NCBI GenBank assembly: GCA_963974645.1
Contig: CAXBEA010000007.1
Coordinates: 191-64,190, forward strand
Length of the DNA stretch: 64,000 nt
Direction: 5' to 3'
Source: an uncultured Neptunomonas sp.
Lineage (GTDB): Bacteria; Pseudomonadota; Gammaproteobacteria; Pseudomonadales; Balneatricaceae
In this document: positions 5,004-30,227 of the stretch, in pieces
Layout: every line of letters starts with the position of its first letter
Position numbering within the stretch: position 1 is the stretch's first letter
Made by a program: the position numbers and the translations under genes
Notes under the pieces: model-generated
Database searches by the model: none
What the model was told of the DNA's origin: nothing
Seen by the model: the letters and a program-made list of their open reading frames with translations, nothing else

Positions 5004-5341
5004 CAGTGCTCTCCTTCTGTAACAGAAGTATCTGAATCTAGCGGCCCCATCACATCACCCCTGAAACCGTAGATGGCCCGGCTACCGCCGATCGCCACCA
5101 GCTCGATCGTCCGGTGTTGGCCGGGCTCGAACCGCACCGCGGTACCGGCGGCGATATTGAGCCGAAAGCCTCGACTGGCGGCGCGGTCAAACTGCAGCCC
5201 CAGGTTGGTTTCAAAAAAATGGTAGTGCGAGCCAACCTGGATCGGTCGGTCGCCGACGTTTGCCACTTTGAGGCTCTGGGTGGCCAGCCCGCGGTTGAGT
5301 TCGATCTCGCCGGCCTTGATCTGAAGTTCGCCTGGGATCAT
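5003..5341 (-). CDS. ureB: Urease beta subunit UreB
   Basis: [26 protein letters not shown] is a typical UreB sequence. The stop overlaps the ureC ATG (TGATG). Confidence 0.95.
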
Positions 5342-5501
5342 GTTTCTTTACCTCTTATCTAAAGGTCGCTGCATGGCTAAGATCAGCGTGTCAGGGTTAG
5401 GCGGAAGTGGCCGAAAAAGCGCAGTTTACGAATAGTAAATGAGCATTTTGAGGGCGCTTCCAACGACACACTGGCGTGATTAGATAACTATGCACGAACT
5501 T

Positions 5502-22715: not shown

Positions 22716-24401
22716 GTGTCTAAAGATAACAAAACCGGAAAGACGGGATCATTCGTCTTTACGATGCACCGAGTGGGCAAAATCGTGCCGCCCAAACGCG
22801 AAATCCTCAAGGACATCTCCCTCTCCTTCTTTCCTGGCGCCAAGATCGGCGTCCTGGGCCTGAACGGCTCAGGAAAGTCGACGCTGCTAAAAATCATGGC
22901 TGGCGTGGACCAGGACTATCTTGGTGAAGCGCGTCCGCAGCCCGATCTAAATATTGGCTATCTGCAGCAAGAGCCGCAGATGGATGCGCATAAAACCGTA
23001 CGCGAAGTGGTCGAGGAAGCGGTATCCGAGGCAAAGAACGCCCTGACCCAGCTCGACGCTATTTACGCCGCCTACGCCGAACCCGATGCCGATTTCGATA
23101 AACTGGCGGCCGAGCAAGCCCGGCTAGAGAACATCATCCAATCCGTCGACGCCCATAACATCGAACGCCAGATGGAGGTCGCGGCAGATGCCCTGCGCCT
23201 ACCCTCCTGGGATGCCAAGGTTGAGCACCTGTCTGGCGGCGAACGTCGTCGCGTTGCGCTATGTCGGTTGCTGCTATCCAAGCCCGACATGCTCCTGCTC
23301 GACGAGCCAACCAACCACCTCGACGCCGAATCCGTCGCCTGGCTGGAGCGATTTTTGGTCGACTTCAACGGCACCGTGGTGGCTATCACCCACGACCGCT
23401 ACTTCCTCGACAACGCCGCCGGCTGGATTCTGGAACTGGACCGCGGCCACGGCATCCCCTACGAGGGCAACTACAGCGCCTGGCTGGAACAGAAAGACGC
23501 CCGTCTGGCAACCGAAGCCAAGCAGGAGGCCGCGCATCAAAAGACCATCAAGTCAGAGCTGGAGTGGGTTCGCCAGGGCTCCAAGGGGCGCCAGTCTAAG
23601 TCCAAAGCGCGCCTCAAGCAGTTCGAGGAGATGAGTTCGCAGAGCTTCCAGAAACGCAACGAAACCCAGGAGATCTATATTCCGCCAGGACCGCGTCTGG
23701 GCGAAAAGGTGATCGAGCTGCACAACGTGTGTAAGTCATTCGGCGATAAAATGCTGGTTGATAACCTGACCCTCACCATCCCACAGGGTGCCATCGTCGG
23801 CGTTATCGGCGGCAACGGTGCGGGCAAGTCGACCCTGTTCAAGATGATCAGCGGCACCGAGCAGCCCGACTCCGGCGAAGTCGTGATCGGTTCAACCGTG
23901 AAGCTGGCCCATGTTGACCAGATGCGCGAACTGGACGGCTCAAAAACTGTCTTCGACGAAATCTCGGACGGCCAGGACATCATCACCGTGGGCAACTACC
24001 AGGTCCCCGCACGCGCTTACGCAGGCCGGTTCAACTTTAAAGGCGGCGACCAACAAAAATTCGTCAAGGACCTGTCCGGCGGCGAACGCAACCGTCTCCA
24101 CCTGGCCAAACTGCTAAAAGAGGGCGGCAACGTACTGCTGCTCGACGAGCCGACCAACGACCTTGATGTTGAAACCCTGCGCGCCTTGGAAGAAGCCCTG
24201 CTGGCCTTCCCCGGCTGCGCCATAGTGATCTCGCACGACCGCTGGTTCCTGGATCGAATCTCAACCCACATCCTCGCCTACGAGAGTGACTCCAAGGCAG
24301 TATTCTTCGAAGGCAACTACAGCGAGTACGAAGCAGATCTCGTAGCCAGAATCGGCGACGCTACGCCACACAGAGTGAAATACAAGAAGATTGATGCTTA
24401 A
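22716..24401 (+). CDS. ettA: ABC-F translational throttle EttA
   Basis: FVFTMHRVGKIVPPKREILKDISLSFFPGAKIGVLGLNGSGKST closely resembles E. coli EttA. It has two ABC cassettes. GTG start preceded by AAGGTG. Confidence 0.93.
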   Translation: MSKDNKTGKTGSFVFTMHRVGKIVPPKREILKDISLSFFPGAKIGVLGLNGSGKSTLLKIMAGVDQDYLGEARPQPDLNIGYLQQEPQMDAHKTVREVVEEAVSEAKNALTQLDAIYAAYAEPDADFDKLAAEQARLENIIQSVDAHNIERQMEVAADALRLPSWDAKVEHLSGGERRRVALCRLLLSKPDMLLLDEPTNHLDAESVAWLERFLVDFNGTVVAITHDRYFLDNAAGWILELDRGHGIPYEGNYSAWLEQKDARLATEAKQEAAHQKTIKSELEWVRQGSKGRQSKSKARLKQFEEMSSQSFQKRNETQEIYIPPGPRLGEKVIELHNVCKSFGDKMLVDNLTLTIPQGAIVGVIGGNGAGKSTLFKMISGTEQPDSGEVVIGSTVKLAHVDQMRELDGSKTVFDEISDGQDIITVGNYQVPARAYAGRFNFKGGDQQKFVKDLSGGERNRLHLAKLLKEGGNVLLLDEPTNDLDVETLRALEEALLAFPGCAIVISHDRWFLDRISTHILAYESDSKAVFFEGNYSEYEADLVARIGDATPHRVKYKKIDA

Positions 24402-24419
24402 CAGCTCAGCCACACCCCC

Positions 24420-24446
24420 AGGGCGCTGATACAGCGCCCTTTTTTA
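24420..24446 (+). terminator. Rho-independent terminator of ettA
   Basis: AGGGCGCTG-ataC-AGCGCCCT stem followed by TTTTTT. Confidence 0.8.
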
Positions 24447-24523
24447 TGCCTGAAACACCTCTAACGATTAAAACCACTCCACAGACTGCTATACATTGAG
24501 TAACACTCTGATGAGTTAACTCC

Positions 24524-25768
24524 ATGGAAAACAGCCTTCCTCAACTGCTACTACTGGGCTCTGCGTTAGCGATCGGCCTACTGATCGGCGTCGAACGAGG
24601 CTGGAGCACCCGAGATCTTGCGGACGGAAGACGTATGGCGGGGCTACGCACCTTTGGCCTCACAGGGCTGCTCGGCGGTCTATCCGGGCTACTGGGAGAC
24701 CTAATCCTCGCCGTAGGCTTTGCCTCGGTGGCCGCTCTGGTTATCACCGCGTATTTTAGCAATCGCCGCAATCGATCAAACATCAGCGCCACAACCCATG
24801 TCGCCATGCTCACCACCTTTTTGCTCGGCGCCCTGGCTGGACTCGATCAGATCACTATTGCAGCGGCCTGCGCCGTCGTCACCACCCTACTGCTTCGCTC
24901 TAAGCACTTCCTGCACCAGCTGCTGCAAAACTTATCCCAGCACGAACTCAACGCAGGCCTGCAACTCTTGATCATCTCTGTAGTACTGCTGCCGGTCTTA
25001 CCGAATACCGGCTACGGCCCATGGCAAGCACTAAACCCCTACGAGATCTGGTGGATGGTTGTACTAATTGCGGCAATCTCTTTTGTCGGCTACTTTCTGA
25101 TCCGTGTTATGGGCTCCCGGCGTGGCATCCTAATAACTGGACTGGCAGGTGGATTGTTATCCTCAACCGCGCTAACCCTGCAACTATCCCGCCTGGCACA
25201 CGCTCAGCCAGCACTGCAACGCTTATGCGCGGTCGGCACACTTATGGCTTGCGGGGTGATGTTTCCTCGAATAATACTGATAGCAGGACTGATCAACCCT
25301 GCATTAACGAGCCAGTTATATCTCCCTATGGGCGCGATGGCAGGCGTAACCTTCTGTTGCGCAGCGCTTATTTTCCGCCGTGAAGGCAAGTCAAAAGAGA
25401 TCGCTCCGGCACCACCCAAGAACCCGCTAGAACTAACCCCTGCACTATTGTTTGGATTACTCTTAGCGACGGTTGCCTTGCTGGGCCGAGCAATGATGGA
25501 GTGGATGGGGGAGTCTGGCGTATTACTGCTAGCGATCGTTTCAGGCATCGCCGATGTCGACGCGATCAATCTGACCTTATCAAGAATGGCAGACACCGAG
25601 ATCTTACTAAACACGGCAGCTACTGGAATCATTCTCGCCAGTATTTCCAACACCCTGCTCAAAGGAGTGCTTGCCGTATTTGCCGGCGGCTTAGGCATGA
25701 TCCGTTGGGTCATGCTACCGCTGTTACTTGCTGGATCTACAGGAGTGCTGATCGCCTGGCTATACTGA
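24524..25768 (+). CDS. MgtC/SapB-family membrane protein with a DUF4010-like C-terminal half
   Basis: 414 aa, polytopic. The N-terminus LLLGSALAIGLLIGVERGW..GLRTFGLTGLLG is typical of the MgtC family. Confidence 0.7.
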   Translation: MENSLPQLLLLGSALAIGLLIGVERGWSTRDLADGRRMAGLRTFGLTGLLGGLSGLLGDLILAVGFASVAALVITAYFSNRRNRSNISATTHVAMLTTFLLGALAGLDQITIAAACAVVTTLLLRSKHFLHQLLQNLSQHELNAGLQLLIISVVLLPVLPNTGYGPWQALNPYEIWWMVVLIAAISFVGYFLIRVMGSRRGILITGLAGGLLSSTALTLQLSRLAHAQPALQRLCAVGTLMACGVMFPRIILIAGLINPALTSQLYLPMGAMAGVTFCCAALIFRREGKSKEIAPAPPKNPLELTPALLFGLLLATVALLGRAMMEWMGESGVLLLAIVSGIADVDAINLTLSRMADTEILLNTAATGIILASISNTLLKGVLAVFAGGLGMIRWVMLPLLLAGSTGVLIAWLY

Positions 25769-25823
25769 TCAATGGCTTTACTATCAAAATACCTAGCCAG
25801 CAACCAACTCTTCAGGCAAAGAG

Positions 25824-26012
25824 CTACTCGACCTCCTCTGAACTCCGCATCCGCTCTTGACGCGCCTGCTGCTCCATAAAGGCGGCTTTAAGCTCTTCCA
25901 ACACCGAATCAACGTCTGCGGTATGCAAATCCTCTTCAAAATAACCCGTCAGCTCGGCATCGGGGTGCAGACCACCGTTTTCGTAGAGCTCCCAGAGCTC
26001 TTTTGCATACTG
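25824..26012 (-). pseudogene. 3' fragment of a RIO-type kinase gene, a diverged duplicate of the end of the gene at 29370..30227
   Basis: It encodes YAKELWELYENGGLHPDAELTGYFEEDLHTADVDSVLEELKAAFMEQQARQERMRSSEEVE. The intact gene has YAKEIWELYESGDLHPDVELTGYFEEDLHTADVDSVLEEIKAAFMEEQARQERIRSAEEVE. Homology stops abruptly at about 26012. Confidence 0.85.
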
Positions 26013-26468
26013 AATTAATACAATTGATGGTGCAATTGATGGGGACAGATTTATTAAATTGCTAATCCGGTCGGCAACAAAGGCGTCTGCCCCTGAGATT
26101 AGCTCGCTCATCTTGGCACCCCAACGTTGAAGCGGCGACTCCTCGCCCAGCGGGCAAGGATCATCCAGCAGATCGATATAACAGGCCAGACTTGCCCATT
26201 CGTAGTCGTCTTCGATCGAGTCAACCTGACGACCTAACGAAACCCCACTAGATGATTACGTGCATCCGGAGAGACCACGCCCGATGCTGCCCCGTCGACC
26301 AAAGTTCGGGCAGGTGCCCGTTCAACCTGATCGACGGGAGCGCGCTTCGATCTGATCCAGATGGTGGCCAGCCTGCTGCGGGGGCTTATCAGCGACCATA
26401 CCGCAATCTAATGCAGGTTGTCCGACGGCGAGGCCCCACCCAACGGGTACGGGTGACCCCTGCCTTTG

Positions 26469-28562
26469 TCATAGAGCGCGTTTGATCCAGGATTCCAGAT
26501 CACGGCGCAGAATGATATCCAGAATCTGCAGGTGCTTACCCGGCTGCCAGTGCAACAACATACGGTAGTCGCCGATACGGATACGATAATGTTCGGGAAG
26601 TAGTTCCAGCGCTTTGGTCTGATGGCGAATACTCTCATCACGGGTGGCGAAGCGAGCGGCGGCCATGATCGCCTTGGCCGCGAGTGCGGGAGGTAGGGCG
26701 GCGCAGTGTTTGCGAAATTTATCACTATATTCGGGGGCCAACGGAGGGGTGTCGAGATCTTCCTGGCGAAATAAAATTTCGTCATCCTCGAGTGTCATTT
26801 CGGGAGGTTCTGGGGTGAGTCGCTCGGCCTGCTTGTTGTGCTCATCGGATAATTGTTTACGCAGCTGTGCTCGCTGCTCCTGCTGCCGGCGAATCTCGCT
26901 TTGCAGTCGCTCCACCTGGCCGCGCAACCGCTGCAGTGTCGCCCTACTCTCTGGATCGGCCTTTTTTTCTATCTGCGGGGTTTCGGCAGCTGTGTTCGAG
27001 CGGGTTTCTCGCGCCAGTTCCAGTTCGTCGCCGATCCGTTGCATGTTTTGCCCCATCTCGTACAACGCCCTGCGCTTTTCTTCCAGGTCACCGCGTGTCT
27101 CCTGCAGACGGGCCTTGAGCCGGTCGATCTTCTCCGTGGCTGCCGCAACGCCGGCCTGGTTGTCACTGCGATCCTCCAACCAGTCGCACAACTCCTCGGC
27201 CGGGTCATCCAAAGGCAGCAGGTCGAGGTCGACACGAGCCTCGCGTAACGCCTCCATCAATATCTGAATATCAAAATGTCGATCGGGGTTGGACACAATC
27301 GCGGCTCGGGCAAAAACGATGCCCAGAGCCGGGTAGTGCGGCAGTAATGCGAAGGCATGTTCGATCAACGGCCCGCCCTCAATTGCCCCTTCGCTATCCG
27401 ACCCACGGATATTGACACGACACTCGGCCTCCAGCGTAGCGAACCGTTGCGGACACTCCAGCAGTTCGAACTGAAACCGAGTGTCCCGTGGTCGGTGCCA
27501 CTCCGCTGGCGGAAAGTGGTCGCGGATCTTGCGAGCCACCGCCAAATCCCCGTCCTTCAACACCGAATGCAGGAGATCTTCGAAATGGCCGCGATCAAAG
27601 TCAGCGACCTCTTTTCGTCGTTCATGCGCAAGCAACATCTCGAAGGCCAACTCACGCATGCCGAAAGTCAAGGCTCGTTGGTAGGCGGCATACAGCTGCT
27701 CGTCACCCAGATCCACTGGTTTCAGCGCCTTGAGTTCATAGGCCCGCAGATCTCCGATCAGTCCGGGATCATCCACCAATCCGGGGTGAGCGACAACTTC
27801 ACTGCGTGTGGTGCCGGCATATTGGGAGGGGTCTCGTAATAGCTCCTGGTCCTTTTCGTAGCAGCATTTTTTGTATTTTTTATTGCTGCCGCAATGGCAC
27901 AACTCATTGCGGCCGAGCTTGGGGACAGAACGACGAACGGTGAACTCACCGTGGCTGATCACCCGCTGGTGCTGCTCCGGGAGGATCTCTTCCAGGCGCA
28001 TGTCACTCCAGATGCGTTCCCAGCCATTCTCGGGCAGCGCCCCATTATCCAGCAAGTGGTGGGTATCCAGGAGCAACATTCCGCTCTCCGGCGGCATGCC
28101 GAAACGCTCCAACTTCCACAGCAGCTTGCGCACCGGTTGAAGATCGAGCCCGTGTTTGATTGATATCTCAGCAGCCAGGCGGGCGGCATAGGCCTGGCGT
28201 TGATTGGAAAATTCATCAGCCAAGGCGACCTCAAGCAACGGTGCCACCGCCTCCGCCCCCTGGAACGCAAAGCAGGGGGCCGTATCCAACAGCTCCTCAC
28301 TCACGCCGATACAACGGCACAGCAAGCCAGGATTGAGTCGAACCCGGTTCAATGCACTGCATTGCAGCAAGCGGCTCAACACCCGAGCTTCGCCGGCCTC
28401 GAGCAGCGCCGACAGCCAGGGTTCGATCTCTCCAGCCGTGAAATGCGCCAACTTTCCGCCCAGCCGACGCACATCAGGCATACAGGCATCGGCAACACGC
28501 AGCTCATCCAGTAGATCAGGTTCCAATGGTTTGCTCACAGAATGGGGTTCCGTATTAGACAA
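26469..28562 (-). CDS. Large multidomain protein: unknown N-terminal region, SEC-C zinc motif, helical region, long charged coiled coil, C-terminal RelE/ParE-like toxin fold
   Basis: SEC-C motif: CHCGSNKKYKKCC. Heptad-like charged stretch: about aa 480-600. The C-terminus (KALELLPEHYRIRIGDYRMLLHWQPGKHLQILDIILRRD) matches the usual RelE/ParE pattern ..G.YRIRVGDYRvIY.i......v.Il.i.hRkd. The start is uncertain: TTG at 28562 has no clear SD, and the alternatives are GTG at codon 9 or ATG at codon 28. Confidence 0.75.
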   Translation of the reverse strand: MSNTEPHSVSKPLEPDLLDELRVADACMPDVRRLGGKLAHFTAGEIEPWLSALLEAGEARVLSRLLQCSALNRVRLNPGLLCRCIGVSEELLDTAPCFAFQGAEAVAPLLEVALADEFSNQRQAYAARLAAEISIKHGLDLQPVRKLLWKLERFGMPPESGMLLLDTHHLLDNGALPENGWERIWSDMRLEEILPEQHQRVISHGEFTVRRSVPKLGRNELCHCGSNKKYKKCCYEKDQELLRDPSQYAGTTRSEVVAHPGLVDDPGLIGDLRAYELKALKPVDLGDEQLYAAYQRALTFGMRELAFEMLLAHERRKEVADFDRGHFEDLLHSVLKDGDLAVARKIRDHFPPAEWHRPRDTRFQFELLECPQRFATLEAECRVNIRGSDSEGAIEGGPLIEHAFALLPHYPALGIVFARAAIVSNPDRHFDIQILMEALREARVDLDLLPLDDPAEELCDWLEDRSDNQAGVAAATEKIDRLKARLQETRGDLEEKRRALYEMGQNMQRIGDELELARETRSNTAAETPQIEKKADPESRATLQRLRGQVERLQSEIRRQQEQRAQLRKQLSDEHNKQAERLTPEPPEMTLEDDEILFRQEDLDTPPLAPEYSDKFRKHCAALPPALAAKAIMAAARFATRDESIRHQTKALELLPEHYRIRIGDYRMLLHWQPGKHLQILDIILRRDLESWIKRAL

Positions 28563-28699
28563 TGTTCATCGCCGATCGCACGTTTAGGGGGAAATCTATG
28601 GTGCCAGAGCGCCGCAGCCAATGCACCCGTGCGGTTGCTATTCTTGATATGTTTATCAGGGTGTTAGTTTGACCAGGGTTTAGCGCCAAAGATTGACCA

Positions 28700-29170: not shown

Positions 29171-29260
29171 TTTACCAGAGGGGGATACGACGAAGACCTC
29201 GTCGCCAGAATCGGTGATGCCACGCCACACCGGGTGAAATACAAGAAGATCGATGCTTAG
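29170..29260 (+). pseudogene. 3' fragment of ettA, a diverged duplicate of 24310..24401
   Basis: It encodes ..GGYDEDLVARIGDATPHRVKYKKIDA-stop. Intact EttA has ..GNYSEYEADLVARIGDATPHRVKYKKIDA-stop. I counted 61 of 72 aligned nt identical. Confidence 0.85.
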
Positions 29261-29278
29261 AGACTCCGCACTATCCTC

Positions 29279-29305
29279 CGGGCGCTGATATAGCGCCCTT
29301 TTTTA
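29279..29305 (+). terminator. Duplicate copy of the ettA terminator hairpin
   Basis: GGGCGCTGATATAGCGCCC followed by TTTTTT, nearly identical to 24420-24446. Confidence 0.75.
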
Positions 29306-29369
29306 TGCCCGGAACACCCTACTACCAAAACGCCTAAACCGGCATCTAAGCCAACCTTAAGACAAGGAG

Positions 29370-30227
29370 CTACTCGACCTCCTCTGCGCTGCGTATCCGT
29401 TCTTGACGCGCCTGCTCCTCCATAAAGGCGGCTTTAATCTCTTCCAACACCGAATCAACGTCTGCGGTATGCAGATCCTCTTCAAAATACCCGGTCAGCT
29501 CGACATCGGGATGCAGATCACCGCTTTCGTAGAGCTCCCAGATTTCCTTGGCATACTGGGTGTCCTTCAGCTCAGGGGCATACTGCGCGTAGTAATCCCT
29601 CATATTGTTCACATCCCGCTCCAGCATCCACTGGGCATGGTTGTTTCCAGCCGCATCAACGGCTTGGGGTAGATCTATAATCACCGGCCCGTAGGCGTCG
29701 ACCAGCACATTGAACTCAGATAGATCGCCGTGTACCAATCCAGCACAGAGCATCCGTACCACATCACCGATTACCGCTGCGTGATCTTCGACTGCCTGCT
29801 CGGCAGACATCGCCACATCGTTTAAGCGCGGGGCAACCCCACCAGAATCGTCGGTCACCAACTCCATCAGCAACACGCCATCAAAGCAACCGTAGGGCTG
29901 CGGCACGCGAACACCTGCCTTTGCCAATCGATACAGGGCATCCACCTCGGCATTATGCCAGGCATCTTCCTGCTGGCTGCGACCAAACTTAGAGCCTTTT
30001 TCCATCGCTCGAGCACGACGGCTATTCCGCACCTTGCGTCCTTCTTGATACTGGACAGCCTGCCGAAAACTTCGCTTATCAGCTTCTTTATAGACCTTGG
30101 CGCAGCGAATTTCCGAGCCACAACGCACCACATAGACCGTTGCTTCTTTACCGCTCATCAACTGACGAATGACCTCGTCTACGATGCCTTCTTCGACCAG
30201 CGGCTGGATTCGTTTTGGAATTTTCAT
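29370..30227 (-). CDS. RIO1-family atypical serine protein kinase
   Basis: MSGKEATVYVV (ATP-binding loop), KVYK, LVHGDLSEFNVL (catalytic loop) and IDLPQAV (metal-binding DFG-equivalent). Confidence 0.85.
   Translation of the reverse strand: MKIPKRIQPLVEEGIVDEVIRQLMSGKEATVYVVRCGSEIRCAKVYKEADKRSFRQAVQYQEGRKVRNSRRARAMEKGSKFGRSQQEDAWHNAEVDALYRLAKAGVRVPQPYGCFDGVLLMELVTDDSGGVAPRLNDVAMSAEQAVEDHAAVIGDVVRMLCAGLVHGDLSEFNVLVDAYGPVIIDLPQAVDAAGNNHAQWMLERDVNNMRDYYAQYAPELKDTQYAKEIWELYESGDLHPDVELTGYFEEDLHTADVDSVLEEIKAAFMEEQARQERIRSAEEVE

Follow-up and report, generated by a model that had tools for sequence, protein, structure and literature searches.

Toxins of the RelE type are normally restrained by a separate antitoxin, so a RelE-like domain in a gene that stands alone raises the question of what holds it in check and what purpose it serves. 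Here this question is addressed for a gene in a 64,000-nucleotide stretch of DNA (hereafter the window) from an uncultured Neptunomonas sp. (GenBank assembly GCA_963974645.1, contig CAXBEA010000007.1). The gene is an intact open reading frame (ORF) of 697 codons plus stop on the minus strand (26469-28562; 2,094 nt; TTG start; stop codon 26469-26471). The original prediction, made from the window sequence, had described its product as a fusion of a SEC-C zinc motif and a long coiled coil to a RelE/ParE-like toxin fold. Our analysis points to a large bacterial family of such proteins, cytoplasmic and about 690 residues long, that preserve RelE-type basic residues. We propose that they are self-inhibited, ribosome-targeting mRNA endonucleases carried on mobile elements and acting in defence or addiction, a reading to which we give a probability of about 0.45.

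The C-terminal domain and its candidate active site

The last 92 residues of the protein (aa 606-697; 26472-26747, minus strand) almost certainly adopt the RelE/ParE-superfamily fold, as judged from the predicted structure and from profile comparisons. The AlphaFold model of the domain alone has a predicted local distance difference test score (pLDDT) of 95.4, and its top Foldseek matches in the PDB are RelE toxins (3bpq_B, 2khe, 3g5o_B, 1wmi_A and 9g12; E=5e-5 to 1e-3, probability 1.0, template modelling (TM) score 0.63-0.74). These are followed by YafQ and YoeB, with ParE structures lower (TM 0.52-0.59), and the full-length model reproduces the ranking of RelE above ParE. The topology of the model and the probability of 1.0 to many RelE, YafQ, YoeB and ParE structures place the domain in the BECR-fold superfamily. 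In addition, the family profile aligns end to end with Mycobacterium tuberculosis RelE2 (3g5o_B), and phrog_1213 ('RelE-like toxin') matches the window domain at E=3.6e-5. Among 22 homologues, 20 match the Pfam family PF24732 ('ParE-like toxin domain'; best E=1.9e-8) and 11 match PF05016. The RelE/ParE-like C-terminus of the original prediction is supported by the model confidence, the Foldseek probability and the phrog match. The domain itself is not new, since it is already in Pfam as PF24732, and because of this entry the novelty claimed earlier was overstated at the domain level. No functional study of PF24732 was found in the literature.

The residues K52, K54, R61, R81 and Y87 are catalytic in Escherichia coli RelE. 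The family is represented by 128 domains, taken from representatives of 50%-identity clusters, which we aligned to E. coli RelE (its sequence verified against the PDB) and to three other solved RelE toxins. Four of the five positions are basic and conserved in the family: K52 corresponds to R660 of the window protein (Arg in 92% of the domains), K54 to R662 (Arg in 84% and Lys in 15%, one or the other in 99%), R61 to R667 and R81 to R686 (both Arg in 100%). The fifth, Y87, corresponds to W692 and is not conserved (Trp 55%, Arg 19%, Lys 10%). An hhalign comparison of the domain profile with E. coli RelE alone gave the same mapping of K52, K54 and R61; its probability is only 5%, and it serves residue mapping only. 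All candidate catalytic residues are present in the window copy, as are the zinc ligands described below. According to the alignment, the domain keeps the basic residues that RelE uses to bind and cut mRNA in the ribosomal A site, and of the five positions in the residue check proposed earlier, four are preserved and one is not. On balance we lean slightly towards the C-terminal domain being an active RNase.

The domain resembles the RelE mRNA interferases of E. coli, M. tuberculosis (RelE1 and RelE2), M. jannaschii, P. horikoshii and T. thermophilus in fold (TM 0.63-0.74), in size and in the basic residues at the K52, K54, R61 and R81 positions. In contrast to them, it forms the C-terminus of a 697-aa protein with no RelB-type antitoxin gene, its Tyr87 position is usually Trp, Arg or Lys, and the sequence identity is only 16-26%.

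A ParE-type poison of DNA gyrase, rather than an RNase, would agree with the name of PF24732 (ParE_like), with the weak matches to PF05016 (ParE_toxin) and with the ParE structures among the Foldseek matches; however, RelE structures rank first with higher TM scores, and the RelE basic residues are conserved. According to Gerdes (2025, PMC11980606), the Pfam 'ParE' family PF05016 itself includes E. coli RelE, and RNase catalytic residues are missing from ParE toxins. Because the basic catalytic positions of RelE, which ParE toxins lack, are preserved in the alignment, the domain is assigned to the RelE type rather than the ParE type, and a gyrase poison appears quite improbable.

Domain architecture and the family

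The AlphaFold model of the full-length protein was built on 33 family members (mean pLDDT 83, predicted TM score 0.63) and shows five parts, all encoded on the minus strand. An all-helical N-terminal domain (aa 15-173; 28044-28520; pLDDT mostly >90) is conserved across the family and is followed by the SEC-C knuckle, a SecA-type metal-binding motif (aa 218-235; 27858-27911). The central domain (aa 253-445; 27228-27806) is modelled as helical repeats that are weakly TPR/PPR/ARM-like, with weak Foldseek matches to TPR and PPR proteins; it contains a conserved FARAAI motif, and a DLDLxPWxDPAE motif lies just C-terminal of it at about aa 444-456. The long coiled coil claimed by the original prediction is recovered as a two-helix segment predicted to form a coiled coil (aa 454-521 and 537-581; 26820-27203), in which the stretch between the two long helices (aa 521-534) is predicted to be disordered. 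A linker (aa 582-605; 26748-26819) then leads to the RelE-type domain; its residues 582-597 are predicted to be disordered (pLDDT <50), and in the family alignment it is gapped, poorly conserved and variable in length. In Pfam, the SEC-C motif was the sole match of the full-length window protein, and neither helical domain matched any Pfam family. NCBIfam and PADLOC returned the same motif and coiled-coil noise families, the latter being the only matches of the coiled-coil stretch in the three collections.

A profile of the RelE-type domain was scanned against 1.84 billion cluster representatives (50% identity) and gave 783 matches at E<=1e-3, with 536 clusters at E<=1e-10. The domain lies at the extreme C-terminus in all of the 150 best matches, most of which are proteins of 670-730 aa, and 113 full-length homologues, nearly all of 680-710 aa, could be aligned end to end with the whole fusion kept in every relative. 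Since the domain is always C-terminal and the sizes are uniform among the 150 best matches, the short ones being contig ends or remnants, the five-part architecture is, as far as these alignments reach, fixed across a large and diverse family. The conserved fusion supposed by the original prediction is borne out accordingly. Stand-alone versions of the domain were sought and rejected, as the short matches are truncations at contig ends or remnants such as that on contig L157, where positions 5251-5403 encode a 51-residue piece of the C-terminal domain, 90% identical to the homologue P0002. Other decayed copies are frameshifted or truncated family genes on long contigs (P0083, P0087). The named members come from metagenome-assembled genomes of Chromatiaceae, Syntrophobacterales, 'Deltaproteobacteria' and 'Pseudomonadota', where they are annotated as 'SEC-C metal-binding domain-containing protein' or as hypothetical and nothing more. 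We found no described system with the SEC-C/coiled-coil/RelE architecture in the literature, in agreement with the original prediction. The Pfam-catalogued domain and RelE proteins that are fused or lack an antitoxin were already known.

The SEC-C knuckle

The motif CHCGSNKKYKKCC at aa 218-235 scores 29.8 bits with Pfam PF02810 (E=5.4e-7), where the cut-off is 20.4 bits, so the SEC-C motif named earlier is confirmed, and PF02810 is matched by 33 of 33 aligned family members. The knuckle shows the CxC-x8-C(C/H) pattern of PF02810 with its flanking GRN and KKYK; in the family alignment C222, C224, C233 and C234 are invariant, and the two flanks are invariant or nearly so. In the PDB, the family profile finds the C-terminal tail of Bacillus subtilis SecA (E=4e-12), the C-terminal peptide of YchJ and the metal-binding domain of E. 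coli SecA. The knuckle lies in a segment of low predicted confidence (pLDDT 46-72) that is probably flexible. A scan of reference genomes with the SEC-C motif pattern returned 80 SEC-C proteins, all unrelated to the family. The knuckle (GRNxPCHCGSGKKYKxCC) and its four metal ligands hardly differ from those of the SEC-C domains of SecA, YecA and YchJ; however, in these proteins the knuckle is C-terminal, whereas here it is internal, between two helical domains, and the remainder of the window protein is unrelated to SecA. The C-terminal tail of SecA co-sediments with ribosomes and crosslinks near uL23, and binding of its knuckle to SecB or the ribosome has been proposed to unlock autoinhibited SecA (PMC6620043; bioRxiv 10.1101/613315).

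Absence of an adjoining antitoxin

Neighbourhoods of the family were sampled in 73 metagenomic loci and several long contigs, and a Pfam census of neighbours was made on 59 loci. No neighbour gene is conserved in the 59 loci, in which 137 neighbour ORFs match 108 Pfam families, none more than four times. The solitary nature of the gene claimed earlier is supported by this result. A cognate antitoxin gene adjacent to the toxin gene, as in type II toxin-antitoxin systems, was not found across these loci, and from the neighbourhoods surveyed we conclude that the family has no cognate antitoxin gene adjoining. The original prediction had regarded a conserved small antitoxin ORF of less than 60 aa as evidence against it; among the surveyed loci, small flanking ORFs are shared within close sublineages at most. 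An antitoxin domain within the protein (RelB, ParD, Phd/YefM, HigA, MqsA or BrnA) was not found in Pfam and NCBIfam searches either; RelB, ParD, Phd and HigA have no match within the protein even at E<=1, and profile searches link the coiled coil to no family of antitoxins.

A rival explanation is that the protein is an ordinary type II toxin, with its antitoxin encoded elsewhere or by a small unannotated ORF or RNA beside the gene. About 170 nt upstream of the gene and its downstream flanks are conserved at the DNA level in some close sublineages, and in the window a 44-aa ORF on the same strand overlaps the start codon. However, in these flanks several frames are open on both strands, and the conservation is limited to close relatives, which indicates that it acts on the DNA and not on a peptide; small-ORF 'families' recur there in the same manner. 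Furthermore, the flanks of the window gene match only a near-identical sister contig from TARA Oceans, no known RNA is found in them by Rfam, and no neighbour family is conserved. An unlinked or hidden antitoxin is thus quite improbable in our view. A micro-ORF of about 35 aa that ends at the start codon in 14 loci was rejected as a peptide, since conservation of this DNA extends to further frames and to the opposite strand and is confined to close relatives; it is taken as conserved DNA instead. The non-coding stretch of about 170 nt upstream of the start is conserved between loci with 75-87% identical proteins and different integrases (L003, L094, L102, L104, L105 and others), and it could be a promoter or 5' untranslated region that travels with the gene. 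In the flanks of the window gene, searches for a promoter and a terminator gave nothing above background.

The original prediction had also described the gene as unflanked by ORFs of 60 aa or more, which is not strictly correct: a 77-aa antisense ORF (26252-26485, plus strand) overlaps its 3' end by 17 nt. This ORF has no counterpart in the other loci, where only its end point recurs; in the window and in L086, L087, L088, L140 and L147, an antisense ORF terminates within the family gene, exactly 17 nt from its 3' end. This shared end point is better seen as a mechanical artefact than as a gene, because on the opposite strand the conserved codons for Trp-Ile-Lys would give a TGA stop.

Association with mobile DNA and defence genes

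The homologue loci often lie on mobile DNA or beside defence genes, as the survey of genomic context suggested by the original prediction brought out. Recurrent neighbours include tyrosine integrases, rve transposases, the proteins DUF4400 and TraN of conjugative elements, PIN, an S24 repressor, ParA, RecD2 and DUF429; CRISPR genes were not among the neighbours in the 59-locus census. From the neighbouring genes, the family appears to be usually carried on integrative or mobile DNA. Tyrosine integrases are common and belong to two unrelated types (PF00589; PF12834 with PF12835), each of which lies upstream of and divergent from the family gene in one sublineage. This arrangement suggests that, in small integrative elements, the family gene is located at the end that bears the integrase. 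The loci concerned are L003 (7008-7811), L102, L110 and L111 on the one hand, and L094 (3042-4103), L099, L106 and L107 on the other, and the integrase is directly adjacent to the family gene in some loci and one ORF away in others.

In two loci (L090, 1200-4442; L101, 1172-4531), a 1,080-aa SNF2/SWIM helicase that PADLOC identifies as DpdE (E=3e-225) is encoded directly upstream of the family gene, and judging from this match these two copies adjoin a Dpd DNA-modification defence system. In one sublineage, a DUF429 gene (PF04250) follows downstream on the same strand (L100, 1516-2397; L093, L109, L121 and L148). In L100 it overlaps the stop codon of the family gene by 4 nt, and the two genes may therefore be co-transcribed there.

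Proposed function

On the proposed reading, the C-terminal domain would be a ribosome-dependent mRNA endonuclease, and the preceding ~600 residues would act as a putative in-cis restraint and as sensor or regulator, so that no separate antitoxin would be needed. Through the SEC-C knuckle the protein might dock onto a chaperone or the ribosome, as SecA does with its near-identical knuckle, and this docking may be the release switch; by analogy with SecA, the knuckle offers a plausible route to the ribosome, and we hold its role as ribosome dock or switch to be less likely than not. A trigger, e.g. phage infection or the loss or stress of the element, would then lead to cutting of translating mRNAs and to growth arrest, the outcome being a one-gene abortive-infection or addiction module. 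A role in defence or addiction, taken by itself, is plausible and somewhat short of an even chance. The original prediction had proposed the coiled coil as an in-cis antitoxin, a putative role suggested by nothing more than its position in the protein; a partly disordered, poorly conserved linker joins it to the toxin domain.

Known systems offer partial parallels to this scheme. Cami1, a CARF-RelE ancillary effector of type III CRISPR, is among the Foldseek matches of the domain model (PDB 8phb and 8phj). Like the window protein, it has a RelE domain fused to a regulatory part and no antitoxin. Cami1 acts on the ribosome and has been solved on the 70S particle; a ribosome action of the window protein is proposed by analogy. 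In contrast to Cami1, the window protein has no significant CARF match in Pfam or PADLOC and no CRISPR context, and its regulatory part combines helical repeats with a SEC-C knuckle and a coiled coil. The fused RelE/ParE toxins surveyed by Gerdes (2025, PMC11980606) likewise have a BECR-fold toxin domain in a larger protein and a proposed defence role. They differ in having antitoxin domains that can be recognised (YefM, HigA and ParD among them), transmembrane segments or partners similar to PtuA; that survey set aside multidomain RelE/ParE fusions without an identifiable antitoxin and does not mention SEC-C (PMC11980606). Rugutis, a one-gene Abi-like antiphage protein of lactococci (PMC11381338), shares with the family the single gene, the location on mobile DNA and the SEC-C motif. 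However, it has 359 aa, its SEC-C motif is N-terminal, it has no RelE domain and no homology was detected beyond the motif, and the analogy is functional only. Cami1 and Rugutis may therefore serve, as analogies, as precedents for the overall logic of our proposal.

A further-reaching version is that the protein is a surveillance nuclease resident on the ribosome, i.e. a co-translational immune sensor and effector in one protein, with no antitoxin or second messenger. The SEC-C knuckle would anchor it near the exit tunnel (uL23), as for the SecA tail, and the helical-repeat domains would inspect nascent chains or a phage-induced state of the ribosome. Recognition would free the RelE domain on a coiled-coil arm of ~100 Å to cut A-site mRNA on the same or a neighbouring ribosome. 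This version we regard as distinctly unlikely.

Several observations weigh against a self-inhibited endonuclease on mobile elements. The window copy itself has no PF24732 match in the Pfam search and scores 15.3 bits against PF05016, where the cut-off is 23 bits; with its last 101 residues alone, the PF05016 (ParE_toxin) profile is covered entirely at E=0.03, which is below the cut-off. The Tyr87 position is not conserved across the 128 domains, some loci lie amid housekeeping genes (e.g. adjoining greA and carB), and the window copy seems to be without the usual ATG start of the family, as discussed below. No family match was obtained in IMG/VR, in the INPHARED phages or in the PLSDB plasmids, and PADLOC has no model for the family. 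Swapped effectors are a hallmark of many defence sensors, and no relative with another effector in place of the RelE domain appeared in profile searches with the full-length protein or with the central helical domain; this is a weak negative, because a word-index prefilter limited both searches.

Some of these points would fit a non-catalytic protein instead, in which a RelE-like module binds the ribosome or RNA as part of an accessory translation, quality-control or secretion-linked factor and the SEC-C knuckle binds SecB or the exit site. The unconserved Tyr87 equivalent, the want of an adjoining antitoxin, the housekeeping surroundings of some loci, and the strictly constant architecture with no sign of effector swapping are all consistent with such a factor, and SEC-C knuckles occur in the non-toxic SecA, YecA and YchJ. 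However, the family is patchy, linked to mobile DNA and represented by decayed copies, and two invariant arginines and two further conserved basic positions lie exactly at the catalytic sites of RelE. In addition, we know of no non-catalytic RelE-fold ribosome factor, and we consider this alternative unlikely. The reading as a polymorphic toxin was dropped, as the protein has no secretion domain, the C-terminus is constant in the 150 best matches and no downstream immunity gene is conserved. An integron cassette was considered as well and set aside, no search for attC sites having been made.

In hundreds of diverged lineages the family retains the catalytic arginines of RelE, always within this one five-part protein and in no case next to an antitoxin. 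If the domain is active, the family would represent, besides Cami1, a second way in which a single polypeptide keeps a ribosome-dependent nuclease under control. The defence or addiction systems that marine and sediment mobile elements carry would then include a further one-gene module, and the widespread SEC-C knuckle would gain a role outside protein secretion.

The gene copy in the window

The intact 697-codon ORF is present as the original prediction described it. The reading of 697 aa is the longest possible because an in-frame stop lies just upstream, and three candidate start codons, all on the minus strand, fit the sequence: TTG at codon 1 (28560-28562), GTG at codon 9 (28536-28538) and TTG at codon 13 (28524-28526). 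In the alignment, the starts of homologues fall at about codons 10-13 of the window ORF, and P0001, a homologue of 689 aa from a public collection that is 98% identical to the window protein, has its start assigned to codon 9. Many relatives keep the ~25 nt that precede a normal ATG start (ACCCxGGATGCGCTxATG). The window sequence has an out-of-frame ATG (ATG AAC ATT GTC TAA; 28567-28569, minus strand) 7 nt upstream of the TTG start. From its sequence, the window copy seems to lack the usual ATG start of the family and must use TTG or GTG.

The gene was compared with a 98%-identical copy on a TARA Oceans contig (L085), and between the two 19 codons are changed synonymously and 10 non-synonymously; the divergence of the flanks (1.7%) is overall similar to that of the gene. 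Because the ratio of non-synonymous to synonymous substitution rates (dN/dS) against this copy is roughly 0.2, the gene is, on this comparison, under purifying selection and functional, and the 113 full-length homologues likewise speak for a genuine gene. A decaying passenger gene with no current function in this genome would account for the non-ATG start with the ancestral ATG context apparently out of frame, for the position of the gene between degraded gene fragments, and for the frameshifted and truncated copies elsewhere. However, the frame of 697 codons is intact, the synonymous differences from the sister copy outnumber the non-synonymous ones with flanks diverging at a similar overall rate, and the candidate catalytic residues and zinc ligands are all present; decay in this genome is therefore very improbable.

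A remnant beside the gene had been labelled IS110 in the original prediction; a search of plasmids by blastn and one of the ORFs of the window by blastx gave no match that would verify the label. The bracketing by duplicated chromosomal sequence that had been noted earlier is recovered. The gene lies between a fragment of rio and a fragment of ettA, both of which repeat, at 82-90% identity, the genuine ettA/rio junction. Two copies exist of the 3' end of ettA with the sequence downstream of it (24327-24459 and 29186-29318; 82% identity) and of the 3' end of rio (25810-26012 and 29356-29558; 90% identity). This duplication is consistent with an acquired insertion. The order is full-length ettA, a gene for a 414-aa membrane protein (24524-25768), the rio fragment, the SEC-C/RelE gene, the ettA fragment and full-length rio, a layout that would be the expected remnant of a single-crossover (Campbell-type) insertion of circular DNA with a diverged ettA/rio junction.

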